Part shown: positions 1-26,859 of the stretch, piece after piece
Layout of the letters: every line of letters starts with the position of its first letter
Numbering within the stretch: the first letter of the stretch is position 1
Assembly (NCBI GenBank): GCA_963704435.1
Contig: OY969902.1
Coordinates: forward strand, 820,978 to 852,977
Reading direction: 5' to 3'
Source of the DNA: an uncultured archaeon
Lineage (GTDB): Archaea > Micrarchaeota > Micrarchaeia > Micrarchaeales > CABMGC01
DNA length: 32,000 nt
Position numbers and translations under genes: made by a program
The notes under the pieces: generated by a model
Told to the model about the DNA's origin: nothing
Database searches by the model: none
What the model saw: only the letters and a program-made list of their open reading frames with translations

Positions 1-3000
1 ATCGCGTAGTTGTCGACGTAGTAATCCATCTGCTCCGTCGCGTTCATCACCACCTGCGTGTTGGACGCGCAGTTCAGCCCGCTCCCGGGCGCAGGCAGGC
101 ACATCGTGTCGTTAACGTGGATATCGCCCACGAGCCTGTTGTTCTCTATGCTGTACAGCAGCTGCGGCGGGATTATCGCTCCGGCGTCCGACAGGTTGGG
201 CACGTACAGCGAGCTGGTCGCCAGGTTCTGGAGGTAGGTTGCCCCTCCCTCGACCAGGGCACTCAGCGAGTCGGAGTTCGCGTCGACTATGGCGTAGCTG
301 TATACGGTGTTAGTGGCGGTGACGGTGCCGCTGGGCACCGCCTGGTTCGGGGCGTAGCACTCCGCCGAGCCCAGAGTCGTCTGAGGCAGAGGGCAGGTGC
401 ATGGCCCCGATCCCGAGCAGCAGCACGATGGGGTGTATACGGTGGACTCCTTCGAAGTGTCCTCCTGCGCGTTCTGCCAGCTCTCGGTCATGGTGTACTG
501 GTACTCGTAGGGCACTATGACGTAGCCGCTCATCGTGCTCGTAAGCGTCTCGGGCGTGATGACTGTTTTCGGTGCCGGAGGCTCGTTCTCGCTCACGACG
601 ACCAGGCTCTGGCTCGACTGAGTGTTATGGGAGGTGTCGACCGCGACGACGTTGTATGCGCCCGGGCTCAGTATGTTGCACAGGCCGCCGCTGGTGGGTA
701 TCGTATAGGTCGCGGACCCCGTCCCCGGAGACGATGCGATCTCCAGGTTGTTCTCCTGCAGGTTATAGATAGAGAGGGTGACGCCATCCGTGCTGGAGGG
801 CGCGTTGGCGGTCAGCACGTCCTGGGGAGTGCATCCCGCTGTCTGGCTGTAGTCTATCTCCGTGCTGGTCATCGTGATCACAGGGGTCGCCTCGACCTTC
901 AGCGTTGCCAGTGTCGTGGACATTGTGTTCGTGTCCGTCGCCGTAACCGCGTAGCTTCCCGGGGCCAGGCAGTCTGCCGGCACATCGCATATCACGTACG
1001 ACACGGTGCCGGTGCCGCTGGCGACGGGATTGCCTCCATTTATGTACAGGTTCACGTTGTCGGTGCCGGTCGCAGCCGTGGACGATATCTGGTCTATCTG
1101 GCCCCAGTCTACCGGAGCCTGCTGTATCGTGAGGGACGGCTGTCCCGCGTCGTTTATCCCCTGGCTGCTGCCTGTGCTGCTCTGCGGCAGGGACGAGTAG
1201 ACTTGCCCCTCGAACTTCAGGATGCTCGCCGTGGATCCGAAGCTCTCGATATAGGTCATCGGGTTCGTGAGCGTGTACGTCGGCCCCTGCATGTTGGACA
1301 CCTGCGCGAGCTGGCTGCAGCTCCCTCCCTGCTGCGTGCTGGTGTAGCACGTGTAAGGCACGCCCCCGCCGAACAGCTTGGTGTAGTTCTCCACGTCAAG
1401 CTGCGCGCTGAGCAGCTCCGGGAATTGGTAGCTGGTCCCGCTGAGGAGCAGGGTCACCGTGTGGTTGAAGTTTACCGAGAAGCCCACGTTTGGGTAGCTG
1501 TAGCTTTGCGGGAGCATCGGGCCCGCGGCAGGATAGTCCGCGGAATAAGCGGACGGCATGCTGCCCGGATGGTAGGTGCAGCTTGCCGAAGAGCAGAACG
1601 TGATCGGAGCGCCTCCTGTCACCTGCACGCTTGCGGACAGAATCCACCCGTACGGCGGGTACGTCGCGCTTGAAGTGTAGGACCCTGTAGTCAGGCTGTA
1701 GTAGTTCGCGGATTTGGTCGCCGTGCCCTCGCACGAGAAGGCGTAGTTCTTTGTCAGCCCCTGCGTCCATATATTGCACCCGAGCAGGCCGCTGGTGTCC
1801 ACCCATTGGCATACGCCTTGAGGCCCGCAGTCTCCGGCCGGCGGCGCCACGTCAGATGTTTGGCAGTTCAGGTCCGAGGGGTTGCTCACCCCGCACGGCT
1901 GCTGCCACATGTCGTTGACGAGCGTCGGGTTTATCGGGAGGTTGGCGCCCGTTGAGTTCAGCATCCTTATCGAGAGCAGGTTGAGGTTCGTGGCCCTCGA
2001 CCCCCCGAGGCACCAAAACAGGAACTGAGTGCACCCTCCCACCATGCCGAGGCCGGCGTTCCAGTCGTCAAGAACGTACAGGTAGCCGTTGACGTCCTGC
2101 AGGCCGAGCGGGTGATGGTAGCTGTCGATATCGTAGTCGTACGCGGCGTCAGAGTAGGAGACTCCCCCACTGCCCAGCACGTTCGACGGATCGCTTCCGA
2201 CCCCGTCGAATTTCAGCCCGAACAGTCCGCCCTTGTAGAGGTAGTCGGAGATGTTCAGCTCCCCTCCACCTCCCGTATACGCAAGGTCCACCGGGCCTTC
2301 ATAGGTCAGGCTTGGGCCGAAGGAGTATATGACCCCGTCAGACGGGCTGGCCGTGAAGACGAGTCCTCCTGTGGGACTGGCCGCAATCTCTTGAGTGGCG
2401 GGCAGGTTGTTAGCGTCGTCGATGTCGGACGTGACGATGTTCATGTCTCCCGTGCCGAGCGTGTTGGTGACCTCGATGACTACTGTGTATTTGCTCAGCA
2501 GCCCGGCCCCCGAGGGAGCGGTAAAATAGTTCTGCGCCACGATGAACACGTCGCCGTTGGCGTCCGTGCTGATGTTGAACGGAGTGAAGCCGAGACTGGC
2601 TAGCTTCGGGTCATCTTCAGTGACGAGCGCGTTTAAGTCGATGGAGTTCAACAGGTACATATTCTGGTCCTGCACCGTGATTACGTTGCCCCAGAACGCG
2701 CTCCAGCCGTTCGCGAATTCCGCCGGATTCGACGTGTCAGGGACGTCGGGCTGCAGGTTCGCGCCGTTGTAGTAGCCCTTCGGTATGGGCTGCAGTATGT
2801 TGAGGCAGTAGTCCCCCCCGGCCTCGCTTATCACCCCGCTCTCTGTGCCGCACAGACCGGTAGACTGGTTCAGGACGAAGACGTAGCCTGTGGCTGTGCC
2901 GGTCACGGATATGGGATTCGATATGGTGGGGTTTAACAGGCCGCTTGTCGGCGCCTCCGGGATGCCTAGCAGGAGCTCCAAAGCGTTCTCGATCGGGCTC

Positions 3001-4625
3001 GCTGCCGATGTTATCTCTGCGCCCAGCTTCGTAAGCGATGTGTACCAGTTGTCGACGACTGCGCTCTCGGCGTCCAATCCGCTTCCCAGCAGGACGCTGC
3101 TGCTTAGCGAATTCACGGGCTGCGAAAGCAGGAAGCCCTTGTAGTTGACGAAGAACGCGTCCGAGGTGTTTACAGGATACATCTCTATGCTGTTCCCAGG
3201 CGTATAGTAGTTGAACGGGCTGAATACGTCGTAGGACCTCGACATCGTCTGGCTGTAAGGGGCGGGCATGGTGAACCCAAGCGAAAAGCGAGGCACGATT
3301 TTCGATGTGAACGACCCTGTCGTCGGAGGCGATGCGGAGGGGTTTGTCACCTCGGTGAAAGGTATCGCGACGTTGTGAATAGAGTCGAGCGTCGTCGTGA
3401 CCGCGAGCGTATATTTCACCGCGCACGACCAGTCCCATACCGCAGGGGAGCAGTCGCTGTTTCCGCAGCTCGGCGGCGCGAACATCAGGTTGTTCCAGTC
3501 GTAGGTGGTCTCGAGGTTCTGCAGGTCGAACACCTGGCTGTCTATCTGCGCGTTGTCGTCGAAATCTGCGAACTCCGCCGACCACGTCCATATCAGGTGC
3601 TGCGCAGACAGCGGGATCTGCTTGAAGATATATGTATTGGTCGAGAAGCCGCTGGATATCACGCCCTGTGAGCCCCCTGACGACAGCATGGGCGAATATG
3701 CGAACAGGCTGAAACTGGCGCTGGCGGGCGTGCTGACGCTCAGCTTGTTGTCCACTACGGCGTTAGCGACGGAGTCTCCGAGAATGACGTCGTAGCAGTC
3801 TGGGAGCCCGCCGCCGCAGTCGTCGCAGATGTTCTGGGAGTCGATGGTGTAGCCGATGCTTCCGATGTCCGTCTTGAGCGTGACCTTGGTGTTCAGGGTC
3901 GCAGGCCCCGTATTGTAGCACGCGTCGCCGGCAAGGTTCGCGACCGCGCCCGTGTAGAAGTAGCTGTTGTCCGTAGGGTTCGCGGCCGGCTTTGATACGG
4001 GGCACGTGAGCAGGCCGCCGGTATTCCCCACATTGTAGTTATTCACGTCGCTCGCGGGCGAGCTCAGCGTAGGCCCGGCCGTTGTTGGCGACGGCGGCTG
4101 CGCCCCGGATTTGCTGAAACTGGTTTCGATTGTCTCGGTGATGTAGCACGGCGACGGCGCTCCTCCAGACGAGTCGATATCCAAGGTCGAGCCGCTGCAC
4201 GAGTTGCTCTGCGGCCCAGAGCTGCAGAAGTTGAGACACCCTTCCGCGGTGCCGGTGCTCTCTGCGGGTATCGTCGAGGTTGTGGTCGTGCCGGTGCTGG
4301 TCGTGGTGGTGCCCGTGGACGTTGTGCTGCTGGCCGTCGACGTAGTGGTGGTGGCAGTTGTCGTCGTGGAGATCTCGCAATCAGTCGGAGTTCGAGGGCA
4401 AGAGCACGGTCCATTGTTTCCGTTGACGCACGTGCCGGACCCTGTGTAGTAGCATCCCAGGCAGCACGGCGAGCAGCTGCCTCCCACGCAGTAGGGCATG
4501 CCTGAACTGCATAGGCAGTCCGCGTCGGTGCTGCACGCTCTAGCCATGCCGCTGAGCGCGATCAGGATCAGAAACAGAGCGGAACCGAATAAAACAAGCC
4601 CAGCCCGTTCGTTTCGCTTTCGCAT
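1..4625 (-). CDS. Giant secreted Cys/Thr/Asn-rich cell-surface protein, N-terminal part only (>1,540 codons; C-terminus lies left of the window)
   Basis: Not in the supplied ORF track. Manual minus-strand translation from ATG 4625..4623 stays open to position 1, and I spot-checked the frame at about 10 places. An in-frame TGA at 4640..4638 bounds the start. The track has no ORF in this frame anywhere in 1-4625, and only Arg/Gly/Ala-rich shadow ORFs in the other frames. The protein starts MRKRNERAGLVLFGSALFLILIALSGMARA (basic n-region + hydrophobic core + ARA, signal-peptide-like). Then comes a 13-Cys module CSTDADCLCSSGMPYCVGGSCSPCCLGCYY..., a Thr/Ser stalk, and a long N/S/T/Y/G-rich region. 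Codons are GC3-rich like the neighbouring genes. Confidence 0.8.
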   Translation of the reverse strand, partial: MRKRNERAGLVLFGSALFLILIALSGMARACSTDADCLCSSGMPYCVGGSCSPCCLGCYYTGSGTCVNGNNGPCSCPRTPTDCEISTTTTATTTTSTASSTTSTGTTTTSTGTTTTSTIPAESTGTAEGCLNFCSSGPQSNSCSGSTLDIDSSGGAPSPCYITETIETSFSKSGAQPPSPTTAGPTLSSPASDVNNYNVGNTGGLLTCPVSKPAANPTDNSYFYTGAVANLAGDACYNTGPATLNTKVTLKTDIGSIGYTIDSQNICDDCGGGLPDCYDVILGDSVANAVVDNKLSVSTPASASFSLFAYSPMLSSGGSQGVISSGFSTNTYIFKQIPLSAQHLIWTWSAEFADFDDNAQIDSQVFDLQNLETTYDWNNLMFAPPSCGNSDCSPAVWDWSCAVKYTLAVTTTLDSIHNVAIPFTEVTNPSASPPTTGSFTSKIVPRFSLGFTMPAPYSQTMSRSYDVFSPFNYYTPGNSIEMYPVNTSDAFFVNYKGFLLSQPVNSLSSSVLLGSGLDAESAVVDNWYTSLTKLGAEITSAASPIENALELLLGIPEAPTSGLLNPTISNPISVTGTATGYVFVLNQSTGLCGTESGVISEAGGDYCLNILQPIPKGYYNGANLQPDVPDTSNPAEFANGWSAFWGNVITVQDQNMYLLNSIDLNALVTEDDPKLASLGFTPFNISTDANGDVFIVAQNYFTAPSGAGLLSKYTVVIEVTNTLGTGDMNIVTSDIDDANNLPATQEIAASPTGGLVFTASPSDGVIYSFGPSLTYEGPVDLAYTGGGGELNISDYLYKGGLFGLKFDGVGSDPSNVLGSGGVSYSDAAYDYDIDSYHHPLGLQDVNGYLYVLDDWNAGLGMVGGCTQFLFWCLGGSRATNLNLLSIRMLNSTGANLPINPTLVNDMWQQPCGVSNPSDLNCQTSDVAPPAGDCGPQGVCQWVDTSGLLGCNIWTQGLTKNYAFSCEGTATKSANYYSLTTGSYTSSATYPPYGWILSASVQVTGGAPITFCSSASCTYHPGSMPSAYSADYPAAGPMLPQSYSYPNVGFSVNFNHTVTLLLSGTSYQFPELLSAQLDVENYTKLFGGGVPYTCYTSTQQGGSCSQLAQVSNMQGPTYTLTNPMTYIESFGSTASILKFEGQVYSSLPQSSTGSSQGINDAGQPSLTIQQAPVDWGQIDQISSTAATGTDNVNLYINGGNPVASGTGTVSYVICDVPADCLAPGSYAVTATDTNTMSTTLATLKVEATPVITMTSTEIDYSQTAGCTPQDVLTANAPSSTDGVTLSIYNLQENNLEIASSPGTGSATYTIPTSGGLCNILSPGAYNVVAVDTSHNTQSSQSLVVVSENEPPAPKTVITPETLTSTMSGYVIVPYEYQYTMTESWQNAQEDTSKESTVYTPSCCCSGSGPCTCPLPQTTLGSAECYAPNQAVPSGTVTATNTVYSYAIVDANSDSLSALVEGGATYLQNLATSSLYVPNLSDAGAIIPPQLLYSIENNRLVGDIHVNDTMCLPAPGSGLNCASNTQVVMNATEQMDYYVDNYA

Positions 4626-4648: not shown

Positions 4649-4665
4649 TATATATATAAAGTTTC
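4649..4665 (-). promoter_or_regulatory. TATA-box-like promoter element for the giant surface-protein gene
   Basis: The minus strand reads gaaacTTTATATATAtag. It is centred about 30 nt upstream of ATG 4625, inside the 49-nt spacer after the GT4 stop. The spacing suggests a leaderless or very short-leader mRNA. Confidence 0.4.
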
Positions 4666-4674
4666 AAACGCGGC

Positions 4675-5817
4675 TCAGGGACGCCCGTTCAGCCTTCGCA
4701 TTATGCCGGAGTAGACCTTTCCCGCGCGGTCCCCAGAGAACTCCTCGAGGACCTCCCTGCTTACGTCCTCGTTCTTCTTCTCGTCAACCCCGTACCTGCT
4801 TGAGATGGCGTTCAGCGCCCTGCCCAGCCTGCCTTCCTTCACCTCTATGCAGTACTTGCGCACCTCCCTCGGGATGGAGCTCGTGTCCATCACGACGACC
4901 GGCGTGCCCAGCGCGAGCGCCTCGAGCGCGACCAGCGACAGGCCCTCCCTCTCGCTCGGCATGACCAGCGCCTTGGATTCGCATATCTCCCTGTAGAGCC
5001 TCCGGGTGCTCAGCCCGTGCACGAAAGTGACCTTGCCCCGCGCCTTCTCGCGGGCAAGCCTCTCCAGCTTCTCAAGCTCCGGGCCCGTCCCCACCACGGT
5101 CAGCTTGGCGTCGGTCTCGGCTATCGCCTCTATGGCGAGCCCGACCCGCTTGTGCCCGACGAGCCTGTTTATCACTATGAACTTGTTCTTCCTGCGCGGC
5201 CTGTTGGCGGCCCTGAACCGGGATATCTCCGCGGCGTCGACAGCCGCAGGGAACACCACGACCCTTTCAGGGTCAACGCCGAACTCGCGCTCGAGCAGGC
5301 GCTTAGTCGTGCTTGCGTTCGCTATGCCCATGTCCGACGCGCGTGCGCACACCCTCTCGATGACGTAGCCTATGCTGCCTATGGTCCGCGAGTAGCCGGT
5401 CCAGAAGCTCTTGCTCCAGACCTCGTGCCACGTGACCACCAGCTTGGTGCGCCTCAGCCGGGTATAGAAGTATAGCGGCAGTATGTGCAGGAACGGGAAG
5501 GAGTCGGCGTCGACCATCTCGAACCTGTACGGCAGTATCTTGAAGAATACCTCGAATGCGAATGAGAGGGGCATGCGGGCGCTGCGCCTCTTGCCGGTGC
5601 TCGTATACATGCCCTGCCAGCCCACTGCCTCCCCGACGCAGTGGTATTTTATCCCCTTGAATGAGAATTCACGGCCGGCCATCCCGTCCCTGAACATGGT
5701 GAAGCAGTGGACATCGTCGCCCTGCTTGGCGAGCCTGTGCATTATTATGAACCGCCTGCGCTCTATGCCCCCGTTGAACCACGGATACGCGTTGTCTGAC
5801 ACGAATGCGATTCGCAC
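4675..5817 (-). CDS. Glycosyltransferase family 4 (GT-B fold)
   Basis: 380-aa track ORF. N-terminus MRIAFVSDNAYPWFNGGIERR is typical of GT4. The C-terminal half carries the E-x7-E signature (EREGLSLVALEALALGTPVVV). Co-oriented with and directly upstream of the giant surface-protein gene. Confidence 0.85.
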   Translation of the reverse strand: MRIAFVSDNAYPWFNGGIERRRFIIMHRLAKQGDDVHCFTMFRDGMAGREFSFKGIKYHCVGEAVGWQGMYTSTGKRRSARMPLSFAFEVFFKILPYRFEMVDADSFPFLHILPLYFYTRLRRTKLVVTWHEVWSKSFWTGYSRTIGSIGYVIERVCARASDMGIANASTTKRLLEREFGVDPERVVVFPAAVDAAEISRFRAANRPRRKNKFIVINRLVGHKRVGLAIEAIAETDAKLTVVGTGPELEKLERLAREKARGKVTFVHGLSTRRLYREICESKALVMPSEREGLSLVALEALALGTPVVVMDTSSIPREVRKYCIEVKEGRLGRALNAISSRYGVDEKKNEDVSREVLEEFSGDRAGKVYSGIMRRLNGRP

Positions 5818-5969: not shown

Positions 5970-6827
5970 ATGCAGGATTCGAAACTCCATAAGAGCATCA
6001 GGTCGCAGTCCGCGATGGAGTACCTGATGACCTACGGATGGTCGATCCTCATAATCACGGTGATCCTGGGCGCGCTCTACAGCGTCGGCGCGTTCGGATC
6101 ATCGAACCTCGGACCGCGCGCACCTCCTGGAAACTGCAAGGTATTCCGGTCATCGGGAGAGGCCAACCTCGAGGGCACATGCGGCGGGGTCCTGCCCGAG
6201 TCAGTCGCGCAGTTCAACGGGCAGAGCAGCTACGTCAACATAGCTAACAACCCTTACATTCAACTAAACGGAGCATTTACCCTTTCATTCTGGTTGCGCG
6301 TAAATTCGGTTTCGGGAACAGGCTATGATGGTTCATTCAGCCAAGGCAATGGCTGGATTGTTTACTATGCCTGCGTAGGTGTGCTCTGTGGACCGAGTTA
6401 CAAACGAGCGGACACCACGGAACATTCCTGGGCGAGTCCCCCCGTTCTCAATCAGTGGAAATATTATGCAGTCACTTATGACGGAAGTGGAAAATTATAT
6501 TTATACGCCAATGGGAAACAGACTAATTATTTTCCAGGAGCACTCCCGACAGATTCCGATATGTCTCCGCTACTATTCGGGCGTGGGGACGATTATGGCA
6601 ATCAATTTCTTTCAAATGTCCAAATCTACAACACCTCCCTCGACGCCAATCAGATACAGACGCTCTACATCAAGGGCATAGGCGCCGCTCCGGTGGATCC
6701 ATACCACATCGTGGGCTGGTGGCCGCTCAACGCCAACGCGACCGACTACAGCGGCAACAACAACGCAGGGGTCGCGACGAACGTCATCTACACTGGCTCG
6801 TGGCTTTCGGGGTATACCCCTCCTTGA
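5970..6827 (+). CDS. Class III signal peptide (archaeal type IV pilin-like) protein with LamG/concanavalin-A-like lectin domain
   Basis: 285 aa. N-terminus MQDSKLHKSIRS|QSAMEYLMTYGWSILIITVILGALYSVGAF is a short basic leader followed by the QSAMEYLMTYGW hydrophobic helix typical of archaeal prepilin-peptidase substrates. The body matches the Laminin_G_3 pattern: FNGQSSYVNI...FTLSFWLRVNS...WKYYAVTYDGSGKLYLYANGKQ...LLFGRG...FLSNVQIYNTSLDANQIQTLY. Confidence 0.85.
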   Translation: MQDSKLHKSIRSQSAMEYLMTYGWSILIITVILGALYSVGAFGSSNLGPRAPPGNCKVFRSSGEANLEGTCGGVLPESVAQFNGQSSYVNIANNPYIQLNGAFTLSFWLRVNSVSGTGYDGSFSQGNGWIVYYACVGVLCGPSYKRADTTEHSWASPPVLNQWKYYAVTYDGSGKLYLYANGKQTNYFPGALPTDSDMSPLLFGRGDDYGNQFLSNVQIYNTSLDANQIQTLYIKGIGAAPVDPYHIVGWWPLNANATDYSGNNNAGVATNVIYTGSWLSGYTPP

Positions 6828-10176: not shown

Positions 10177-11181
10177 ATGAAAGGCATGTACGCCAACAAG
10201 GCGCTCGCCGTATTTTTTGCAGCGATCCTCACAATATCCCTTGCCGGTGCAGCGAATTATAGCAATACTCTAACCACTTCCTTACTTACCACAACACGCA
10301 CTACAACTTTGAATACTACCACATCGACTCGCACCACTACCATAACCACAATACCCACGACCGTCTATACGACGCTGCCTACGACATCGCGTACTACGAC
10401 CGTGAATACTACTACCATACTCCCAACATCGACTCGCACCACCACCGTCAACACAACAACCACAATCATTCCCGCAAATACCCTCCATGCAAACGCCACT
10501 ACAACAAAGACCTCTTCAACAACTTCAGCCACAACTTCCGTACGCTATAATGCAACAACCACGGTCCCTCCCAATACCAACACAATTCGCATAAATACTA
10601 CGACAATCGCGACCACCACGATACCACAGACCGCGATAGGCGCCAACTCCATTGTGATGATTACAGTGTCTCCTTCACAAGTAGGACAGACTATAATCAA
10701 TGGTTCATTCGCCGTCGAACCCACCAACTTCATCATCATCAACGGAGTTCCGACAATCACTATGTATGTGCTATACAATGGTTTGATTGTGAACACTAGC
10801 GTCATGACGCCATACCTTGAGAGGACGTTTCTGGTAAGCAACCATGTGCTCTATGTCCTGTTTGCTCCGCTCACAACTACGACCGTAAACGTTACCACCG
10901 CTTACACGACCCTTCCAACGACAACGGTACAGACTGGTCAAACCAGCGTTGTGACGACCGTGCTTCCCACCTCTACCACGGCTCCCATAACCAAGGCCCC
11001 CGTTAGCACTGTAGTGACCACCGTTCCCGCGAGTGCGGCGCAGAATTTGACTAGTTCTGTGAGGACTAGTACGATGACGACCGTGAATGCGACTAATGTA
11101 ACAGTCGCAACTTCCCCCACTTTGGGCGGAGTCTTCGTGCCGATCATAAACTTCTTCAAGAGGCTGTTTGGATTCATCTGA
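10177..11181 (+). CDS. Secreted threonine-rich (about 30% Thr) putative N-/O-glycosylated surface protein
   Basis: 334 aa. N-terminal signal-like segment: MKGMYANKALAVFFAAILTISLAGAA. I count about 100 Thr and 13 N-x-S/T sequons. There are internal repeats (T/S)RTTT(V/I)NTTT. A non-repetitive beta-rich core spans aa ~154-232. The C-terminal tail is hydrophobic/basic: GGVFVPIINFFKRLFGFI. Confidence 0.75.
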   Translation: MKGMYANKALAVFFAAILTISLAGAANYSNTLTTSLLTTTRTTTLNTTTSTRTTTITTIPTTVYTTLPTTSRTTTVNTTTILPTSTRTTTVNTTTTIIPANTLHANATTTKTSSTTSATTSVRYNATTTVPPNTNTIRINTTTIATTTIPQTAIGANSIVMITVSPSQVGQTIINGSFAVEPTNFIIINGVPTITMYVLYNGLIVNTSVMTPYLERTFLVSNHVLYVLFAPLTTTTVNVTTAYTTLPTTTVQTGQTSVVTTVLPTSTTAPITKAPVSTVVTTVPASAAQNLTSSVRTSTMTTVNATNVTVATSPTLGGVFVPIINFFKRLFGFI

Positions 11182-11188
11182 TGAGGAC

Positions 11189-11809
11189 TCATCTCTGAGA
11201 CTTCGCCAGCCTCTTCTTGACGTGCTTCAGCGAGGAGAACGTGTCCCTGTCTATCTCGTTAAGCGTGAAGGAGATGCTTGCCGCCTGCTTCTTCATGTTC
11301 GGCATGACTATGTTCTCCAAGGCGTTTACCCTCCTCTTCACCTTGTCTATCTCGATGACGAGCCTCCTCAGACCCTGCTCCCTCCTCGCGATCTCCACCA
11401 CCATCCTCTTGACCTCCCCGAACGCATCCTCGACGTCGCTGACCGCGACGCTGGTCTGCAGCGCAGCCCCCTGCCGCGCGTGGCCGAACCGCTCCTCTAT
11501 GATCGGTATCCTGACGCCCATCACATTAACTATCCCGAGGCTCACCCCGCTGGTGTCGCCCATCTGCGCCGCGGCTTGCTCGAGCTCGAAGTCCCCTGAG
11601 AACGTGGACGCTATCGCGGTGGTCTTGTAGGCGGCGCCCAGCACCTCCTGCAGCCTGCCCCTGTCCGCCTCCGACTTCTGGAGGATCTTGAAGAACTCGA
11701 TGACGAGCGCCTCCCTCTTCTTCTTGAGGAGGGCGTGGCCCTTGCCCGCGAGCTTGGCGCTCTTCTTCAGGTTTATCAGGTTCATCCGCGTCGGGTTGAT
11801 CCTCGCCAT
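11189..11809 (-). CDS. atpD: A-type (A1AO) ATP synthase subunit D
   Basis: The track ORF extends to 11905, but its first 32 codons overlap atpB. The homologous N-terminus [35 protein letters not shown] starts at ATG 11809, forming an ATGA overlap with the atpB stop. Confidence 0.9.
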   Translation of the reverse strand: MARINPTRMNLINLKKSAKLAGKGHALLKKKREALVIEFFKILQKSEADRGRLQEVLGAAYKTTAIASTFSGDFELEQAAAQMGDTSGVSLGIVNVMGVRIPIIEERFGHARQGAALQTSVAVSDVEDAFGEVKRMVVEIARREQGLRRLVIEIDKVKRRVNALENIVMPNMKKQAASISFTLNEIDRDTFSSLKHVKKRLAKSQR

Positions 11810-13200
11810 CACTTCTCGCCCTTGCGCTTCGGGAGGTACTTGTCGATGTATTCCTTCTTGATCCTCGTCAGTTCCTCCTCCGGCAGTCCTGACAGGAGTT
11901 CCCATCCGATCTGCAGGGTCTTCTCTATGTTCCTGTCCTCGTACTCGCCCTGGTTTATGAACCTCTTCTCGAACTCGTTGCCGAAGCCGAGGTACAGCTT
12001 GTCGCCCTCGCTCAGCGCCTCCGCCCCGATTATCGCGCTCAGGTTCCTCGCCTCCTGCGCCCTCGAGTACGCTCCGGCGAGCTGGTCCGCGACTCCCCTG
12101 TGGTCCTCCCTCGTCTTCCCTGCTCCGATTCCGCTTCCCATGAGCCTCGACAGCGACCCGATCGGGTTGACAGGAGGGTAGAGGCCCTTGTTGCCCAGCC
12201 CCCTGTCCAGGTATATCTGGCCCTCGGTGATGTATCCCGTCAGGTCGGGTATCGGGTGGGTGACGTCGTCTCCCGGCATGGTGAGTATGTTCAGCTGGGT
12301 TATGCTCCCCTTCTTTCCGCTCACGACTCCCGCCCTCTCGTATATGTTCGCGAGGTCCGTGTACATGTATCCTGGGTAGCCCCTCCTTCCAGGGACCTCC
12401 TCCCTCGCGCTCGCGAGCTCCCTGAGCGACTCGCAGTAGTTCGTCATGTCCGTCAGCATGACCAGAACGTGCATGCCCCTCTCGTACGCGAGGAACTCCG
12501 CTGTCGTCAGCGCAAGCCTAGGGGTGAGTATCCTCTCGATGCTCGGGTCGTCTGCGAGGTTGATGAACGCGACCGTCCTCTCCAGCGATCCCGTCTTCCT
12601 GAAGTTCTCTATGAAGTAGGACGCGTCGTCGTACGTGACGCCGATCCCCGCGAAGACCACGGCGAACTTCTCGCTCATGTTCTTGACCTTCGCCTGCCGC
12701 GCGATCTGAGCCGCGAGCTGGTTGTGCGGCAGTCCCGCGCCCGAGAATATCGGGAGCTTCTGTCCCCTGACCAGGGTCATCATGCAGTCGATCGTCGACA
12801 CTCCCGTCTCAATGAAGTCGCTGGGCATCTGCCTCGCCACCGGATTCATGGGCTCCCCGTTTATGTCCCTCTTCTCTCCGCCGAGCATCTCTGCCCCGCC
12901 GTCCTTCGGCTTGCCCTGCCCGTTGAATATCCTACCGAGCATGTCGTCGCTTACGTGGGTCATGAACGTCTCGCCAAGGAAGCTCACAGAGGTGGTCTCG
13001 ACGTTTATCCCGCTGGTCGGCCCGAAGACCTGCACCACGGCGTAGCCGTCCGCGCTCTCGAGCACCTGCCCGAGCTTGCTCTCCCCGTTCGCCAGGTTGA
13101 TCCTGACTATCTCGCCGTAGGCTGCGTTCCTGACGCTGCTCACCACTATGAGCGGCCCCGCCACGCGGTCAATCGTCTTGTATTCCACATCGAATTTCAT
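11809..13200 (-). CDS. atpB: A-type ATP synthase subunit B (non-catalytic)
   Basis: 463 aa. It has [21 protein letters not shown] and [24 protein letters not shown], typical of A/V-type B subunits. It overlaps the atpA stop by ATGA. Confidence 0.95.
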
Positions 13201-14987
13201 TCGCTCACCTTCTCCTCAGCAATGGCCTCCTCCTTCACCATCTTCCCGAACTCAGTGTCGATATCGCCGGTTACGGCCTTCGACTCGCCGTCGATCGAGT
13301 GCTCCCTGACCTCCTTCATCCTGGCCAGCCTGCCCCTTACCGCGGCCTTCATTATCTTGTCCGCGCTCACGCCCTTCCCTGCGGCATCGGCGGCCATGTC
13401 GCTGAAGTGCAGTATCGCCTTGAGCATCAGGTCCTGCTTCTTCAGGCTCGTGTACGCGTCGACCTCCTCGTACGCGTTCTGCCTCAGGAAGCTCTCCCTG
13501 AGCATCCTGCCGACCTCGAGCACTATCCTTTCGCTGTCCGGCAGCGCGTCCGCGCCCACGAGCTGGACTATATCCTTGAGGTCCGCCTCCTTCTGAAGCA
13601 GAGTCATCGCCTGCTTCCTCAGCCCGCCGAACTCCGGGCTGACGTTCTCGGAGTACCACTTGTCAAGCGCGTTGATGTAGAGCGAGTAGCTCGTGAGCCA
13701 GTTTATCGCCGGGAAGTGCTTGGCCCCGGCGAGCGACGCGTCCAGCGCCCAGAATGTCTTTATGACCCTGAGCGTGCCTTGCGACACCGGCTCGGACAGG
13801 TCGCCTCCCGGCGGCGATATGGATCCAACAACGGTTATCGATCCCATCGCGCCGCTGAGCGTCATGACCCTCCCGGCCCTCTCGTAGAACTCGGCTAGCC
13901 TCTTGGGCAGGTATGCGGGATATCCCTCCTCGCCAGGCATCTCCTCGAGCCTTGCGGATATCTCCCTCATCGCCTCGGCCCATCTCGATGTCGAGTCGGC
14001 CATGAGCGCGACGTCGTAGCCCATGTCCCTGAAGTACTCGGCCATGGTTATGCTGGTGTAGACGCTAGCCTCCCTCGCGGCCACCGGCATGTTGCTCGTG
14101 TTAGCTATGAGTATCGTACGTTCCATGAGCGGCCTGCCCGTCTTCGGGTCCTTGAGCTCCGGGAACTCGACCAGCACGTCGGTCATCTCATTGCCCCTCT
14201 CCCCGCATCCGACGTAAACCACTATGTCCGCGTCGGCGTATTTCGCTATCTGGTGCAGCGTGACGGTCTTCCCGCTCCCGAACGGGCCTGGAACGCCCGC
14301 TACGCCTCCCTTCGCGACCGGGAACAGCGTGTCTATGATCCTCTGGCCGGTCAGCAGCGGGACGTTCGCGGCTATCTTGTCCGCGAACTTCGATCCGGTC
14401 CTCACCGACCGGGTCTGCAGCATCGTTATCACGACCTTGCCCTTCGCGGTTCTAACAGAGGCGACCTCGCTCTCCACGGTGAACGTCCCCTCCCTTATGT
14501 GCTCGATCGTGCCCGAGACTCCGTAGGGCACCATTATCCTGTGCTTTATCAGCTCGGTCTCCTGCACGTATCCGAGCACCTGGCCCTCCTTGACCCTCGT
14601 GCCCTTCTTGACTCCCTTCTCGACGTGGAAGTGCCACTTCTTCTTCCTGTCTATGGCGTTTATCGCTATGCCTCGCGCTATGAAATCCCCGCTCCTGTCC
14701 CTGATGACGTCGAGCGGCCTCTGCACCCCGTCAAATATCTTCGACAGCAGGCCCGGCCCCAGCTCCACCGAGAGCGGCTTGCCCGTCGAGGTCACCTCCT
14801 CGCCCGGCCTGACCCCGCTGGTGTCCTCGTAGACCTGTATGACTGCCCTGTCCTTCTCCAGCCGTATTATCTCGCCTATGAGCTTTGCTGACCCGACCTT
14901 CACGACGTCGTACATGCTGCTTCCGAGCATGCCCTTCGCGACTACGAGCGGTCCCGCGATTCTCTCTATTGTTTCCATCATAATCAC
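13197..14987 (-). CDS. atpA: A-type ATP synthase subunit A (catalytic)
   Basis: 596 aa. Walker A GPFGSGKT is present, along with [24 protein letters not shown] and the A/V-type insertion after the N-terminal beta-barrel. The track start is GTG 14987 (GTGA overlap with the atpF stop); ATG 14981 is the alternative. Confidence 0.95.
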
Positions 14988-15313
14988 TTCTTGTTTTTGT
15001 CCGCAGCCATCAGGTCGATGCCGACGGCCCTGAGTATCAATTTCCTGAGCGAGTCCGCGTGGGTCTCCTTCTGCCCGTATCCCGATACCGAGATGACCAC
15101 GGGGTCGAGCGAGTTCTCTATCCTGTGGAGCAGCCTCCTGTCCTTGACCCTTGATATTGCGTCCTCGCTGGCTATTATTATGCCCACGTCCTTGCGCTCG
15201 AACAGGTCCGAGAGCAGCCTGTCCGGCTCCTCGCCCTTGCTGAGCGGGTAGGTCTCCTTCACTCCCGACAGCTTCAGGCCCAGGGACAGCAGCTGGTCCC
15301 CCACGACGACCAT
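14984..15313 (-). CDS. atpF: A-type ATP synthase subunit F
   Basis: The small protein [22 protein letters not shown]...[10 protein letters not shown] matches the AtpF pattern. The track ORF starts 10 codons earlier (ATG 15343, overlapping atpC). I prefer ATG 15313, but either is possible. Confidence 0.85.
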
Positions 15314-15330
15314 CCTCTTGATCTGAGAGT

Positions 15331-16395
15331 TCACTTGAACCATGTGATCATCCTCCTTATCTCGTCGTCGCCCAGTCCGTAGCTCTTGCCCTTTATTATT
15401 ATTCTGAGCGTCGAGACCTCTATCTCCTTCAGGTACAGGAACGCGATTATCGTGCCGAACGAGAGCACGCTGTGCCTGACCGCCTTGAGAGCGTCGCGGA
15501 ACAGCTCGTTCATCATCGCGATCTCGAATATCATGAGGGACCTGCCCTTGCCAGCGGCGTACTCGGCGGCGGCCTGCTTCAGGTCGAACGCGCCAATCGA
15601 GACTGCTAGGGCGTCAACGCTCTTGGAGCTCTCGAACGCCTTGCCCAGCGCGGCTATGCCCACGCTCCCGTTGCGCACAAGGTAGCCCCGGATCTCGGAG
15701 AACTCCCTCCCGTGCCTCTTCGCGTTGAGCAGCATGAGCGCGTTCTTCAGGTCTATCCTTCTGGCGATGAGCTGCGCCGACTCCCTGTTGATCTTCCTGA
15801 GCTTCTCGATAGTCGATCCGAGCTTGGCGTAGTACGCGACGTCTATCGCGCTGTCGACCTCCATCAGGTCCTTCGACTTCCTGTAGGCGTTCAGCGCGGA
15901 CCTCATCTCCTGCTTGTATGGCGTCGCGGCCGCGAGCTTCCCTATCGCGCTCTCGATGCTGTTCGTGGCCATCGCCTCCTTGACCCTCGCCGCGCTGACG
16001 TACTTCGAGTCTATCAGGTACCGGGATATGTCATCGAATCCCTTGCCCGTGCCCATGGCGCCTATCATGAACTTCGCATTGCTCATGTCCCACACTCCGA
16101 CGATGTCGCGCACTATCTCCCTGTGCGCAGGGGGAGCGACCGCGACCAGCTTGTTCGTCTCCTTTCCCAGGCTCTTGCTCAGCGCGAAGTCTATCAGCTT
16201 GTCCATCGACTTCGTGCCCCCGAACTCCTCGACGTAGCCCTTGTAGCTGGTCTGGAGGAGCATCGCGCCCATGCTCTCCGTCTCCTTTGCTGCAAGCATG
16301 CGCTCTATCGCGTCCCTCGCGACCAGCTTGGACTCCATCGCCTTCACTCGGGTGTTGGAGTAGCCATACCTTATAGCGTCGCGGAATCCTGGCAT
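15331..16395 (-). CDS. atpC: A-type ATP synthase subunit C (V-type d homologue)
   Basis: 354 aa, all-helical. The N-terminus [16 protein letters not shown] resembles the conserved AtpC start. It occupies the canonical position between atpE and atpF. Confidence 0.9.
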
Positions 16396-16401
16396 CTGTC
16401 G

Positions 16402-17082
16402 TCACTTGCGCTTGCGCTTCGGCTTGTGTTTCAAGGCCGTCTTCCTGGAAGCATTTTTCGGCACCTTCTTCTTGGCTGCCCCTTTGCCGAATTTCTTCTT
16501 CGCGATCCCTCTCTTACCGGTTCCGAAGACGCCCTTCCTTAGCGCCTCCTTCACAGTGTCGCGGTTCCTGTCGAAGAGGGTGTCCAGCGTAGCGTCTATC
16601 TTTATCCTGCCGTCTGCCGCGTAGATTACGAGCCCGTCCATCTTTCCTTGGCTGTGCCTTATCTTTCCGGCGAATCCCTTCGCGAACTTCGCGTCCCGCT
16701 TGTCCATGACGAGCGTGAGACTCTCCATCGGAGATACCTTCAGCGCCTCCTTTATCGCAGAGTCGAAGAGCCTCCCGTAGCCCTTCTCCTTGACGCGCTT
16801 GATGACGCTGCCCCTTATCCGCTCCACGAGCCCGTCGATCGTCTTCTCCCTGGCCGCGAGCAGGAGGTTACGCTCCTGCATCTCCCTCGACGACCTGTAC
16901 TCGAGGCTAAGTCTGCCGATCTCGTCCTTGAGCTCGCGCTCGAACGCCTCGTCCGCGGCATCAGCCCTGGCCTTCGCCTCTTTGACAATGGCCGCGGCCT
17001 CTCTCCTGGCCTTGGCCTCGATCTCATCGGACCTGCGCTTGGCGTCGTCCTGTATCTCCTTCTGCAGTGCATCCAACGGCAT
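16402..17082 (-). CDS. atpE: A-type ATP synthase subunit E (peripheral stalk) with unusual Lys/Arg-rich C-terminal tail
   Basis: 226 aa. N-terminal coiled coil LQKEIQDDAKRRSDEIEAKARREAAAIVKEAKARAD, then a globular C-domain. It sits in the canonical position between atpK and atpC. The last ~38 aa are GKRGIAKKKFGKGAAKKKVPKNASRKTALKHKPKRKRK. Confidence 0.85.
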   Translation of the reverse strand: MPLDALQKEIQDDAKRRSDEIEAKARREAAAIVKEAKARADAADEAFERELKDEIGRLSLEYRSSREMQERNLLLAAREKTIDGLVERIRGSVIKRVKEKGYGRLFDSAIKEALKVSPMESLTLVMDKRDAKFAKGFAGKIRHSQGKMDGLVIYAADGRIKIDATLDTLFDRNRDTVKEALRKGVFGTGKRGIAKKKFGKGAAKKKVPKNASRKTALKHKPKRKRK

Positions 17083-19699: not shown

Positions 19700-20881
19700 C
19701 TATGGTTTGTGAAGCTCGGATATGAGCGTTAGTACGTTGACAAACCGCACTTTGCATGCGCCGACTTCGGCGCTGGCCCCTTCGCCATCTTTGAAGACGA
19801 CAAATCCTTTCTTGGACCTATACGATTCTATGAACTGTCGCATTCCCGCACCGACAGCGCCTTCCGGCGACCTCACTTTGACCTCTATGGGGGTTATCCG
19901 ATTCCCGTCTTGGACCACGAAATCCACTTCTGCCTTGCCTTTGGATTGCCAATACCTGACATTCTTCCCCGCTTTTATCAGTTCGGATAGCACATAATTC
20001 TCGAATATCCTGCCATTGAGTTCCGCACCCATTCGAAAATCATTAGCTACTGCGTTCCTGAGCCCTGTATCTAGGAAGTACAACTTGGGTTGCTTCGTTA
20101 TCTCCTTGAGCTTGTTCTTGTAAAAGGGCATGATCCGCACTATGAGATAGCTCTTTTCCATTGCGTCCATGTATTTCTTGACGGACTGGAAGGACAGACC
20201 GACGTCCCTGCATACGCTGTTGTACTGGATTAGGTTACCGACGTAATGTGACAGGTATGCTGCGAGCCTCTCCAGCGCACCCACGTCCTCTATCCTGAAA
20301 GTCCTTGACATATCCTTAAGCACCATCGTTTCGTACAGGTTCCTGAGGAGAGCCTCCTTGCTCTGGTTGTCGCTCTCCAGCACGACCTTGGGATAGCCTC
20401 CGTATGCGATGTGCTCATCCACGCTTCGCGACAGCATCTTCCCAGTGGTTTCCGCATACCCTTTTGTGGAAAGGAACTCCTCAAGGGAAAACGGATACAT
20501 CTTTATGACCGCTACTCTCCCCACGAGCCATGAAAGCACATCCTTGCCCAGTATCGTCTCAGAGGAAGACGTTATCCAGAGCCTTTTTCCGACATCGGCC
20601 AGATACTTCAGCTTTTGGCCAGGGTCTTTCCCGTACTGGACTTCGTCAAGGACCGCCAGCCTGCCACCTTGAAGGTACTGGTTCTCGAATTTCTTTATGT
20701 CAGAATCGAACATCTCCCTTACGTCGGGGTCGTCGAAGAAAAGATAGGATGCGCCTGACTTTTCCGAGAGCGCCTTAAGGAACGTCGTCTTTCCAGCCTG
20801 CCTTGGGCCCACGACGGCGACTATGCCATTGGCCTTTGCCGCGGAGACGAATTCCTTGGTAATGCCTCTTTCGACGTACAT
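19700..20881 (-). CDS. AAA+ ATPase (AAA_14-like) fused to a DUF4143/PD-(D/E)xK nuclease-like C-terminal domain (COG1373-type)
   Basis: Walker A VVGPRQAGKTT and Walker B-like LAVLDEVQ are present. The C-terminus KAEVDFVVQDGNRITPIEVK gives a D...E-x-K nuclease-fold signature. The track ORF begins at 20962, but I prefer ATG 20881 (MYVERGITKEF) because a TATA-like box sits 26 nt upstream of it. Confidence 0.85.
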   Translation of the reverse strand: MYVERGITKEFVSAAKANGIVAVVGPRQAGKTTFLKALSEKSGASYLFFDDPDVREMFDSDIKKFENQYLQGGRLAVLDEVQYGKDPGQKLKYLADVGKRLWITSSSETILGKDVLSWLVGRVAVIKMYPFSLEEFLSTKGYAETTGKMLSRSVDEHIAYGGYPKVVLESDNQSKEALLRNLYETMVLKDMSRTFRIEDVGALERLAAYLSHYVGNLIQYNSVCRDVGLSFQSVKKYMDAMEKSYLIVRIMPFYKNKLKEITKQPKLYFLDTGLRNAVANDFRMGAELNGRIFENYVLSELIKAGKNVRYWQSKGKAEVDFVVQDGNRITPIEVKVRSPEGAVGAGMRQFIESYRSKKGFVVFKDGEGASAEVGACKVRFVNVLTLISELHKP

Positions 20882-20902
20882 GATGCTTAGTTGCACGCCG
20901 TC

Positions 20903-20911
20903 ATTTATATG
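20903..20911 (-). promoter_or_regulatory. TATA-like box for the AAA+ ATPase gene (leaderless spacing)
   Basis: The minus strand reads acATATAAATga, centred about 26 nt upstream of ATG 20881. Confidence 0.4.
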
Positions 20912-20919
20912 TCTTTCTA

Positions 20920-20972
20920 CTAAAATTAAACTCAAGTTACAGTTTAGTCCAACTAAAATCAAACTAAAGTTA
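20920..20972. repeat. Two 20-nt direct repeats (18/20 identical), 33-nt period, immediately upstream of the ATPase TATA box
   Basis: ctaaaattaaactcaagtta (20920-20939) and ctaaaatcaaactaaagtta (20953-20972), separated by cagtttagtccaa. Confidence 0.85.
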
Positions 20973-25825: not shown

Positions 25826-26859
25826 AAGGCAGAAAGAGCACGCTTTTCCTGTACTATGACCCCCACTATGCCCATGACGCATTCGCAAGGTCGCTGGGTG
25901 CGGACCGATTTCCAGCTCCGCGGCTGAGGTCAGGAGAGGGAAGCACGGCATACAACACCATCGGACTCCTAAGGACGGTCTCCGCAGCGTTCAAGATTCC
26001 CCGCGATTATGACGTCTACCTGTGCGAGGGGACCTACGTGTTCCCGGCGCTTGCCAGGAAGCTGCACCTGATCGGAGAGGACGCGAAGATCATAGACCTG
26101 CTAGCCAGCCCGCTGGCCTACTACATAAAGACGGGCGTGGTCGGAGGCGCTAAAAGGAGTTTCGCCCTGTCCCTGCTGAAAGAAGTGGACGGCTTCGTCT
26201 GCGTCGGCCGCATGGAGAGGCAGCTGATAGAGGAGATACTGCCCGGCGCGAAGACCATCGTGACCTACCCTTTCGTCAAGAGCGAGGTTAGGAGAAGTCT
26301 CCTGTCGGCAAAGGGCGCTCCGGACCTGGGGTCGAAGAATATCCTGTTCATAGGGAAGGGCGATCCCTACTACAAGGGCATCGACCTGCTTATCGAGGCA
26401 TTCAAGCGCGTCAGGAAGAAATGGCCGGACGCTGAACTGAACATAGTGGGCGCCATCGAGGGTTCAGAGCAGTACGCAAAAGGCGCTGAAGGCGTGAACT
26501 TCCTCGGGTTCGTGAAGGACCTCGAGAGCGTGATGGCCAAGTCTGCCCTGTACGTGCACCTGGGCAGGGGGGACTCATTTCCCGTCTCCTCAATGGAGGC
26601 GATGCTCCGCGGAATTCCCGCCATCGTGTCTGAGTGGACCGGTACGAAGGAGATTGTGCAGGAGGCGGCGAGCGGGATGGTCGTGCCGCTGGATGCGGCT
26701 GCCGCATCTGCTGCGATAGACAGGTACTTCTCTCTGCCCTCGAGGTCGAAAAGGCTGCTTTCGAAAAAGTTCCGCCGCGCAGCAAGCAGCATTAAGAAGG
26801 ATGTCGTAATTAAGAAGTTCGTAAAGGATTATAGGGGTCTAATCTGTGGCGAGAAGTGA
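25822..26859 (+). CDS. Glycosyltransferase family 4
   Basis: 345 aa. The start overlaps the previous stop (ATGA). The GT-B C-terminal half has ILFIGKGDPYYKGIDLLIEAF and GDSFPVSSMEAMLRGIPAIVSEWTG (an E/D-x7-E-type motif). Confidence 0.85.
   Translation: MKGRKSTLFLYYDPHYAHDAFARSLGADRFPAPRLRSGEGSTAYNTIGLLRTVSAAFKIPRDYDVYLCEGTYVFPALARKLHLIGEDAKIIDLLASPLAYYIKTGVVGGAKRSFALSLLKEVDGFVCVGRMERQLIEEILPGAKTIVTYPFVKSEVRRSLLSAKGAPDLGSKNILFIGKGDPYYKGIDLLIEAFKRVRKKWPDAELNIVGAIEGSEQYAKGAEGVNFLGFVKDLESVMAKSALYVHLGRGDSFPVSSMEAMLRGIPAIVSEWTGTKEIVQEAASGMVVPLDAAAASAAIDRYFSLPSRSKRLLSKKFRRAASSIKKDVVIKKFVKDYRGLICGEK

Follow-up and report, generated by a model that had tools for sequence, protein, structure and literature searches.

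The S-layer stalk protein SlaB of the Sulfolobales and archaeal S-layer glycoproteins with a C-terminal anchor, such as the Haloferax CSG, are characterised by a Sec signal, a large glycosylated ectodomain, a C-terminal transmembrane (TM) segment and Thr-rich, presumably O-glycosylated linkers. The present analysis concerns a giant gene whose product shares this topology and which lies at one end of a 32,000-nt stretch of archaeal DNA (assembly GCA_963704435.1, contig OY969902.1, positions 820,978-852,977 of the forward strand); the whole stretch is hereafter referred to as the window. Positions 1-4625 of the window most likely encode residues 1-1,541 of a type-I membrane glycoprotein of giant size (1,953 residues in full) from a Micrarchaeota (DPANN) archaeon.

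Large exported proteins have been described in this phylum. Four genes of "Ca. Mancarchaeum acidiphilum" Mia14 (MIA14_0152, _0331, _0793 and _0946), which take up ~2.5% of its 0.95-Mb genome, encode giant secreted proteins with an average length of ~2,000 amino acids (aa), for which a role in host contact was proposed (Golyshina et al. 2017, PMC5498576). In "Ca. Micrarchaeum harzensis", SLP_Mh (Micr_00292) is an experimentally proven S-layer glycoprotein of 979 aa and 101 kDa with PF05123/TIGR01564 domains, almost no Cys and no known membrane anchor, and the SLP family has been reported in 38 of 49 Micrarchaeota genomes (Gfrerer et al., bioRxiv 10.1101/2021.04.28.441871). The structure 1L0Q, a fragment of a Methanosarcina mazei "surface layer protein", combines tandem YVTN beta-propeller and PKD domains (Jing et al. 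2002).

On the minus strand of the window, a frame beginning at the ATG at 4625 runs through 1,541 codons to position 3, where the window edge cuts it, and contains no stop (P ~1e-20 for such a run by chance, given the local base composition), while a TGA is present in frame 5 codons 5' of the ATG. The G+C content at its three codon positions (0.50/0.52/0.81) matches that of the native genes of the window, such as the ATP-synthase and oxidoreductase genes, the DNA being 61% G+C. The original prediction, which had taken this frame for a real gene overlooked in the list of open reading frames (ORFs), was right on both counts, as frames running off the source go unlisted. It had also dismissed the ORFs in the other frames as Arg-rich shadows, and these indeed have their G+C maximum at codon position 1 (0.77-0.84) and 11-20% Arg, as exemplified by the 518-aa ORF at 117-1673 of the plus strand (0.84 and 18%, respectively). 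An archaeal TATA box, TTTATATATATA, with a purine-rich GAAAC resembling a BRE in front of it, is located within the 49-nt gap separating the giant gene from the gene upstream. In five loci carrying orthologues (L001, L004, L008, L014 and L023), a TTATTTATA-type box is found at an equal distance upstream and the start context GTTTGNATG is kept. The spacing of the box and the recurrence of both elements indicate that the ATG at 4625 is the true start, and the arrangement implies a putative mRNA that is leaderless or has a very short leader and is transcribed from its own promoter.

The remainder of the gene was recovered from an 839,390-bp ENA contig of the same organism (ERZ25039481 contig_54332, referred to as L024), where it occupies 11193-17054 and closes after 1,953 codons, residues 1-1,541 being identical to the window protein. 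The complete gene is also present on an NCBI metagenome contig (L025). Over the giant gene, L024 matches the DNA of the window at 99.95% identity and L025 at 100%, and a product exactly the same as that of the gene directly upstream is on record in L024, L025 and a Logan contig. Leftward extension, which had been suggested earlier, thus supplied the complete gene with its stop, and the in-frame stop or frameshift then considered as an objection did not appear, the frame being intact and identical in the other assemblies.

The complete protein has 1,953 aa, a mass of 204.8 kDa, an isoelectric point (pI) of 4.07, 58 Cys and 14 N-x-S/T sequons; the part encoded in the window has 50 Cys and a pI of 4.05. 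The body had been described as rich in Asn, Ser, Thr, Tyr and Gly with many sequons, of which the compositional part holds (Ser+Thr 23%, Asn 6.5%, Tyr 5.1%) and the part concerning sequons, discussed below, does not. The 412 residues beyond the window edge end in FNYYYAPNVTQTIFQIGLFELGYGNL, a single TM helix (~aa 1911-1930) and then KRTGGKRRAVKVKRRSRRERKGR. Because a TM helix with a basic tail forms the end of the full-length product, the protein is predicted to be tethered to the membrane by its C-terminus and not released; of the secreted surface protein envisaged earlier, export to the surface is retained and secretion is not. The tail has the tripartite shape of an archaeosortase substrate (...LGYGNL, TM helix, KRTGGKRR...), with no PGF/PEF/VPXXXP motif found by inspection and no match to the CTERM models of NCBIfam in the complete protein. 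Lys and Arg make up 2.1% of the residues, a share that is 9-18% for cytoplasmic proteins encoded in the window and 4-5% for two further proteins that are exported, which together with the low pI fits exposure of the ectodomain to acid.

From the N- to the C-terminus, the signal peptide and the single Cys module are followed by a linker of Thr and Ser, the conserved N-domain rich in beta strands, a helical linker, the propeller of YVTN-like type, the tandem modules, a conserved stalk and the TM helix (Table 1). The signal-peptide-like N-terminus noted earlier has a basic n-region (MRKRNER), a hydrophobic core (KD19 hydropathy up to 2.45) and then ARA/C, at which the peptide would be cut after Ala30. 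The same signal peptide opens the closest relative, and most complete family members start similarly with a hydrophobic N-terminal segment. The distal module was correctly recognised earlier, with 12 Cys in place of the 13 counted at that time. Its repeat unit occurs once here, in 6 copies in the closest relative (L004) and in 5 copies in L008/P0004 and P0049 (BLASTP E 1e-5 to 1e-24), Ser/Thr linkers separating the copies in the relatives; it has no match in Pfam or among the PDB sequences (best PDB sequence E = 0.3 or weaker). The Thr/Ser stalk, previously given as 32 residues, is one residue longer, is encoded by 21-nt tandem repeats at 4278-4369 and is probably O-glycosylated or extended.

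Table 1. Positions in the window of the segments of the giant gene, its promoter and two neighbouring genes
Feature	Positions	Strand	Basis
Conserved membrane-proximal region (start), aa 1355-1541	3..563	-	alignments; three conserved sequons; cut by window edge
Two tandem homologous beta-rich modules, aa 1160-1247 and 1248-1345 (or 1160-1252 and 1253-1350)	591..1148	-	module-module alignment
YVTN-like beta-propeller with large loops, aa 565-1130	1236..2933	-	profile, Foldseek, DSSP
Cys-rich loop inside propeller, aa 905-967	1725-1913	-	sequence
Helical linker, aa 501-564	2934..3125	-	long helix ~aa 510-541 (model residues 385-416)
Conserved beta-rich N-domain, aa 126-500	3126..4250	-	invariant/near-invariant columns in 18- and 40-sequence alignments
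Thr/Ser linker, aa 86-118	4272..4370	-	33-residue Ser/Thr/Ala/Gly run
Distal Cys-rich module, aa 31-83, 12 Cys	4377..4535	-	one copy of ~55-aa repeat unit
Start codon (4623-4625) and putative Sec-type signal peptide, aa 1-30	4536..4625	-	hydropathy
Archaeal TATA box TTTATATATATA	4649..4660	-	read directly; centre ~31 nt upstream of ATG
GT4 glycosyltransferase, directly upstream	4675..5817	-	Pfam Glycos_transf_1, Glyco_transf_4
AglB/STT3-like oligosaccharyltransferase, divergent, 838 aa	21037..23553	-	STT3 E 5.6e-5, TIGR04154 E 3.4e-12

The N-domain is the signature of the family, with the motifs SPANxVNxYN, LLTCP, AGDxC, AQHxIWTW and FSPxNYYTP, and is modelled with very long antiparallel strands, mostly at pLDDT 70-90. 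The helical linker following it is an insertion hot spot for accessory modules in other members: P0003 carries an SLT-like insertion here, and the SLT_3 domain of P0066 (aa 1554-1645) lies past the start of its core match (~aa 1179), which fits the same site. For the propeller, a profile of the family searched against all PDB sequences matched 1L0Q alone (E 3.3e-5), the YVTN blades aligning with EIAASPTGxLVFxAxPxxGxIYxF, and the invariant motifs NISxDxxGDVF, HHPLGxxDxNGYLYVLDxW, YPPYGW and ENYTK were identified. An AlphaFold2 model of the core (aa 126-1140), built from a 40-sequence alignment, reached pLDDT 73.3 and pTM 0.75, an earlier model from a 6-sequence alignment (pLDDT 31) having been discarded. 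Its DSSP string displays ~6-7 four-strand units from aa 565 to ~1130, broken by low-confidence Cys-rich loops. Foldseek searches with the model returned nothing but beta-propellers from the PDB at E <= 1e-3 (CylK at 1e-5, 1L0Q at 3.6e-5, YncE, PAL, hydrazine synthase, NHL, YWTD and WD40) and an NHL propeller from BFVD. The propeller-like strand motifs perceived in the original prediction are in agreement with these matches, and the modelled core includes a beta-propeller fold, the resemblance being at the level of the fold only. No YVTN or PKD repeat model of Pfam or NCBIfam matches the window protein at E <= 1.

The two modules that follow the propeller, ~90 aa each, share homology according to both hhalign (97.5%, E 7.7e-12) and BLASTP (E 4e-8, 35% identity), in accordance with the tandem pair first proposed. 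They are presumed to be Ig-like; no significant match was obtained in Pfam, including its PKD models, or among the PDB sequences (best E = 0.3 or weaker). The region is absent from P0003, and a true PKD domain was found in 1 of the 16 long members scanned.

As had been anticipated, the protein belongs to no named family: the window protein has 0 matches in Pfam and NCBIfam at E <= 1, and the complete protein 0 in Pfam at E <= 0.1 and 0 in NCBIfam at E <= 1. A word-indexed search of 5.8 billion clusters retrieved 3-5 relatives only; profile queries returned P0001-P0005 alone, probably due to low-complexity words swamping the selection of candidates. A HMMER profile of the core, searched against 1.84 billion representatives, retrieved 210 clusters at 50% identity, of which 199 have E <= 1e-10 and 168 have E <= 1e-30; nearly all the members are 1,500-4,050 aa long, and those sampled are named only "hypothetical protein". 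A genome scan with one genome per GTDB species and two peptide patterns only yielded 18 loci, nearly all in metagenome-assembled genomes (MAGs) labelled Micrarchaeota, Micrarchaeia or Micrarchaeaceae, which agrees with the small-genome archaeal origin surmised earlier, the lineage being one of the DPANN archaea. The family, as recovered, appears sharply delimited and restricted to the phylum, with members almost only in Micrarchaeota MAGs. The window protein aligns with all members over aa 110-1541 at 30-57% identity. A C-terminal signature, NYxYAPN...IGLFEL[SG][YF]G, followed by the TM helix and the basic tail, is common to all 14 complete relatives examined and is present in the completed window protein.

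Accessory domains are found in the longer members, for the most part N-terminally or within the linker ahead of the propeller; these include SLT_3 lysozyme-like domains (5 members), GH5 with GH39, peptidase M23, PKD, GxGYxYP and DUF2341. The occurrence of murein-type hydrolase modules on such a scaffold (in some of P0066, P0021, P0003 and 16 aligned members) is unexpected, the known hosts being wall-less Thermoplasmatales.

The sequons run opposite to the original prediction. Its composition predicts 21.5 +/- 3.9 N-x-S/T sites for the window protein, which has 10 (z = -2.9), a depletion that removes the argument for heavy glycosylation drawn from their number. Most of the sites (8 of 10) recur at a frequency of 70% or higher among 18 aligned members, with N1080 ("NYT") found in 17/17, N684 in 17/18 and N1054 in 16/17 of the sequences. 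N-glycosylation of the protein nevertheless remains plausible, because the sequons are conserved and genes for an AglB-like enzyme and glycosyltransferases (GTs) lie in the neighbourhood. Across the family, the high-Cys members (50-109 Cys: the window protein, L004, L008, P0004, L014 and L016) have about half the expected sequons, and the members with 24-46 Cys in the 18-member alignment are mildly depleted, at or above expectation, which suggests a trade-off between disulfide and glycan stabilisation.

A conserved context of four genes is apparent around the loci, consisting of an AglB-like gene, a GT4 gene, the giant gene and a gene for a TM partner. The GT4 gene lies directly upstream of the giant gene, with 58-80% identity, in L001/L013, L004, L006, L014 and L016, and a GT4 gene is also called in this position in L023. 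The AglB-like gene is 16 kb upstream in the window, and its orthologues (51-71% identity) are ~3-7 kb upstream in L001, L004, L013, L014 and L016, with an STT3 gene ~4 kb upstream in L023. Its product scores under the curated cut-offs for both STT3 and TIGR04154, as the AglB of Ca. M. harzensis likewise falls under the KEGG score threshold (published annotation table); EPDGYYHY of the first external loop is kept, while WWDYG is absent and LWPDGS is found instead. The gene may encode a divergent Micrarchaeota oligosaccharyltransferase, presumed to be the enzyme that N-glycosylates the giant protein. A correspondence of the giant gene to the S-layer gene's slot beside AglB was considered and found weak, the neighbours in Ca. 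M. harzensis being a 5,095-aa ConA-like protein and MinD.

The TM partner gene follows the giant gene in 11 of 14 loci, and also in L024, the window's own genome, and in L023 (17566-18783 in L024, 15843-17123 in L001, 15627-16661 in L004, and 8 further loci). The protein, of 330-580 aa, consists of a short N-terminus, one TM helix with the sequence LLSFGA[IV]xALIPLLIIIILIAAAAGLTRG[YF]D and a basic Gly/Lys/Ala-rich region (14-19% Lys+Arg), and has no family match in Pfam; presumably its N-terminus faces outwards and its basic domain is cytoplasmic. The succession of LSFGA motif, helix and Arg in the partner resembles that of LS[YF]GN motif, helix and basic tail in the giant protein. The two segments align in register, yet hhalign gave a probability of only 13.5%, and homology is not claimed. 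A similarity between the 455-aa protein encoded after the partner in L024 and a 518-aa neighbour in L001 was marginal (E 0.003).

The described systems can now be compared with this locus. Like 1L0Q, the window protein is an archaeal cell-surface protein in which a YVTN-type propeller is followed by small beta modules; the similarity is limited to a few blades (~9% identity, TM-score 0.28), and the window protein is ~5x larger, with an N-domain of its own, Cys modules, a C-terminal stalk and large Cys-rich propeller loops. With the Mia14 giants it shares the phylum, export and giant size, and, on the Mia14 side, beta-propeller and PKD-like domains. The Mia14 proteins have been described as strain-specific and partly horizontally acquired, with Kelch/YVTN, PKD and CARDB domains visible to standard models; the family found here occurs widely in the phylum and has a core that Pfam and NCBIfam do not see. 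SLP_Mh has a signal or TM segment at its N-terminus and an AglB gene four genes away, and the window protein is similarly a candidate glycoprotein of a Micrarchaeota envelope; it differs in its length, its 58 Cys and its C-terminal TM anchor, and neither the window protein nor the complete one contains a PF05123 (S_layer_N) or TIGR01564 domain in the Pfam and NCBIfam searches. SlaB and the Haloferax CSG resemble the giant protein in topology and in having a Thr-rich linker, which is distal (N-terminal) in the giant protein and not adjacent to the membrane; its propeller core, Cys modules and conserved TM partner gene have no counterpart there and no sequence relationship is evident. The pairing of giant gene and TM partner gene bears a loose organisational analogy to the SlaA/SlaB operon and no more. 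A giant surface protein with a YVTN propeller and small beta modules is thus of a known kind, noted in Mia14 (PMC5498576), and the expectation of new biology is upheld for the family and not for the kind of protein. The family is, as far as we found, previously undescribed, and the domain models do not cover its core. Its distinctive traits are the N-domain, a "beads-on-a-string" distal stalk of Cys-knot units in variable copy number with Ser/Thr linkers, the juxtamembrane motif, the few conserved sequons and the TM partner.

We consider it probable, at about 0.6, that the giant protein is a glycosylated envelope spike or scaffold presenting variable distal modules. It would be exported by the Sec pathway and held by its C-terminal TM helix with the N-terminus outside and the tail inside, disulfides would stabilise the ectodomain, and the AglB-like enzyme would N-glycosylate the few conserved sequons, for which the linked GTs would assemble the glycans, the Thr/Ser linker being O-glycosylated. 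The constant core would then hold the lineage-variable distal modules away from the membrane for contact with the host surface or the biofilm matrix, the distal end bearing one Cys module here and, in relatives, up to six or else glycoside hydrolases or lysozyme-like domains. Such a role agrees with the host contact proposed for the giant PKD/YVTN proteins of Mia14 (PMC5498576) and with the harzensis co-culture, for which biofilm and surface contact are important (PMC8975820). Several points weigh against it. Conservation of the core within the phylum is strong (30-57% identity) and includes numerous invariant positions such as HHPLG...D...W; a fast-evolving adhesin would not usually behave in this way, and a conserved role, structural or perhaps even catalytic, could be indicated. 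Domain searches recognised no binding or enzymatic module in the window member. No fold is assigned to the N-domain, to either of the tandem modules or to the stalk, and the Foldseek matches of the propeller have low TM-scores (0.24-0.38) on a model of pLDDT 73. Codon bias, which bears on the "major" status put forward in the original prediction, is not elevated (effective number of codons, Nc, 41 as against 31-39 for the ATPase genes). Cleavage of the signal peptide is putative, and an uncleaved peptide would give the protein a second anchor at its N-terminal end. As regards expression, localisation, glycosylation and binding, the role is deduced from sequence and model.

The same C-terminal TM helix and stalk region could serve another purpose. 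The literature states that it is not known how SLP_Mh is anchored, and proposes a further protein, a TM "stalk". The giant protein, possibly with its TM partner, might by analogy span the 20-25 nm wide pseudoperiplasm as the anchor of an SLP_Mh-type canopy, much as SlaB holds SlaA in the Sulfolobales. The wide distribution of the family in the phylum, the co-conserved partner with its large basic, presumably cytoplasmic, domain and the AglB-like gene nearby, as near the S-layer gene of Ca. M. harzensis, are compatible with such an anchor. Nothing observed links the giant protein to any SLP, however, and no sequence similarity to SlaB is apparent, Pfam giving no match to any family; the scan with two peptide patterns did not detect the family in the genus Micrarchaeum or in Mia14; and distal modules that vary in enzymatic domains and Cys repeats better suit an exposed protein than one buried under a canopy. 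On balance, an anchoring stalk is unlikely. A further reading, similarly unlikely and the most novel, joins the giant protein and the TM partner in a trans-envelope complex, acting either as the missing S-layer anchor or as a docking device that couples distal host contact to the cytoplasm; the LS[FY]G motif, TM helix and basic segment shared by the two proteins would then form an interaction interface or a new sorting signal.

A somewhat fainter chance attaches to a lattice-forming role, in which the giant protein would be this lineage's S-layer glycoprotein and would stand in for the PF05123-type SLP or add to it. In common with many S-layer glycoproteins of archaea it is large, acidic, rich in Ser and Thr, exported, probably glycosylated and TM-anchored, its sole sequence relative in the PDB is annotated "surface layer protein", and its own TATA promoter looks strong. 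Against these stand the proven Micrarchaeota SLP, which is of a different family whose domains find no match here, the Cys content, S-layer proteins being typically almost Cys-free, the unremarkable codon bias, and a size spread of 1,600-4,000 aa with enzymatic inserts that is hard to fit into a regular lattice. Fainter still is the prospect that the propeller core is a surface-displayed enzyme or a ligand-binding receptor, for instance for host glycans or lipids, and not a passive scaffold. Invariant polar residues in the propeller (D832, H837-H838, D853, R887 and ENYTK), the catalytic propellers CylK, PAL and hydrazine synthase among the best Foldseek matches, and the fusion of glycan- or murein-degrading domains to the same core in other members lean towards it; no catalytic family was matched, the TM-scores are low, and the His, Asp and Asn residues that propellers conserve often serve the structure or relate to glycosylation. 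An artefact, be it a misassembly, a pseudogene or a frame left open by chance where G+C is high, can be practically dismissed, for although 61% G+C also yields the long shadow ORFs, the improbably long stop-free run with 81% G+C at the third codon position, the ~210 homologous clusters, the 30-57% identity to the members aligned, the identical sequence in three independent public assemblies and the stop after a conserved C-terminus show that the frame is a real gene.

The other genes of the window, among them an A-type ATP synthase operon, a 2-oxoacid:ferredoxin oxidoreductase, the AglB-like gene and many GTs, fit a Micrarchaeota-type archaeon; no tRNA genes or Rfam families were found in the window. 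Divergently transcribed from the giant locus is a gene for a 285-aa LamG_3/ConA-like protein (5970-6827, plus strand) that begins with a type-IV-pilin-like class III signal, KSIRSQSAMEYLMTYGWSILIITVILGAL, and looks like a pilin-LamG fusion. A stretch of the window at ~6239-6619 fails to align to the otherwise 99.9% identical L024, where the gene encodes 299 aa, pointing to a strain-variable surface protein; an exact look-up of the protein returned no record, probably due to this stretch. The codon usage of the gene is atypical, with a G+C content at third codon positions (GC3) of 0.63 and Nc 60. Another exported product is predicted from orf334 (10177-11181, plus strand), located between oxidoreductase and ATP-synthase genes, which has a signal peptide, a mucin-like composition with 30% Thr, 13 N-x-S/T sequons and a hydrophobic C-terminal end. 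With no Pfam or NCBIfam match and codon-position G+C values of 0.36/0.57/0.55, it is a candidate for a second envelope glycoprotein.

Genes for a DUF4143/AAA_14 ATPase (19700-20962, minus strand), a GT4/GT1 glycosyltransferase (26846-27895, plus strand) and an FkbM-type methyltransferase (29018-29755, plus strand) have GC3 values of 0.63-0.69 and Nc 50-52, the GC3 of the ATP-synthase and oxidoreductase genes being 0.82-0.87, and may represent recent acquisitions in the glycosylation gene cluster. The ATP synthase B subunit is called as 227 aa in L024 (2573-3256), followed by an ORF on the opposite strand, and is intact with 463 aa in the window (11809-13200), which reflects either a frameshift or assembly error in L024 or a real strain difference.

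The analysis establishes no new principle, as giant propeller/Ig surface proteins are already known in archaea and were noted in Mia14. For a family of ~210 clusters it supplies a model of the complete gene, a map of the domains, conserved candidate sites of glycosylation and a four-gene context. The lysozyme-like, M23 and glycoside-hydrolase modules carried on the same scaffold bear on the processing of host or biofilm glycans by the symbionts. Few DPANN archaea have been brought into co-culture. The Micrarchaeota are one such group, in which the anchoring of the S-layer and the attachment to wall-less Thermoplasmatales hosts are unexplained, and the giant protein described here is a concrete candidate for envelope anchoring or host contact.

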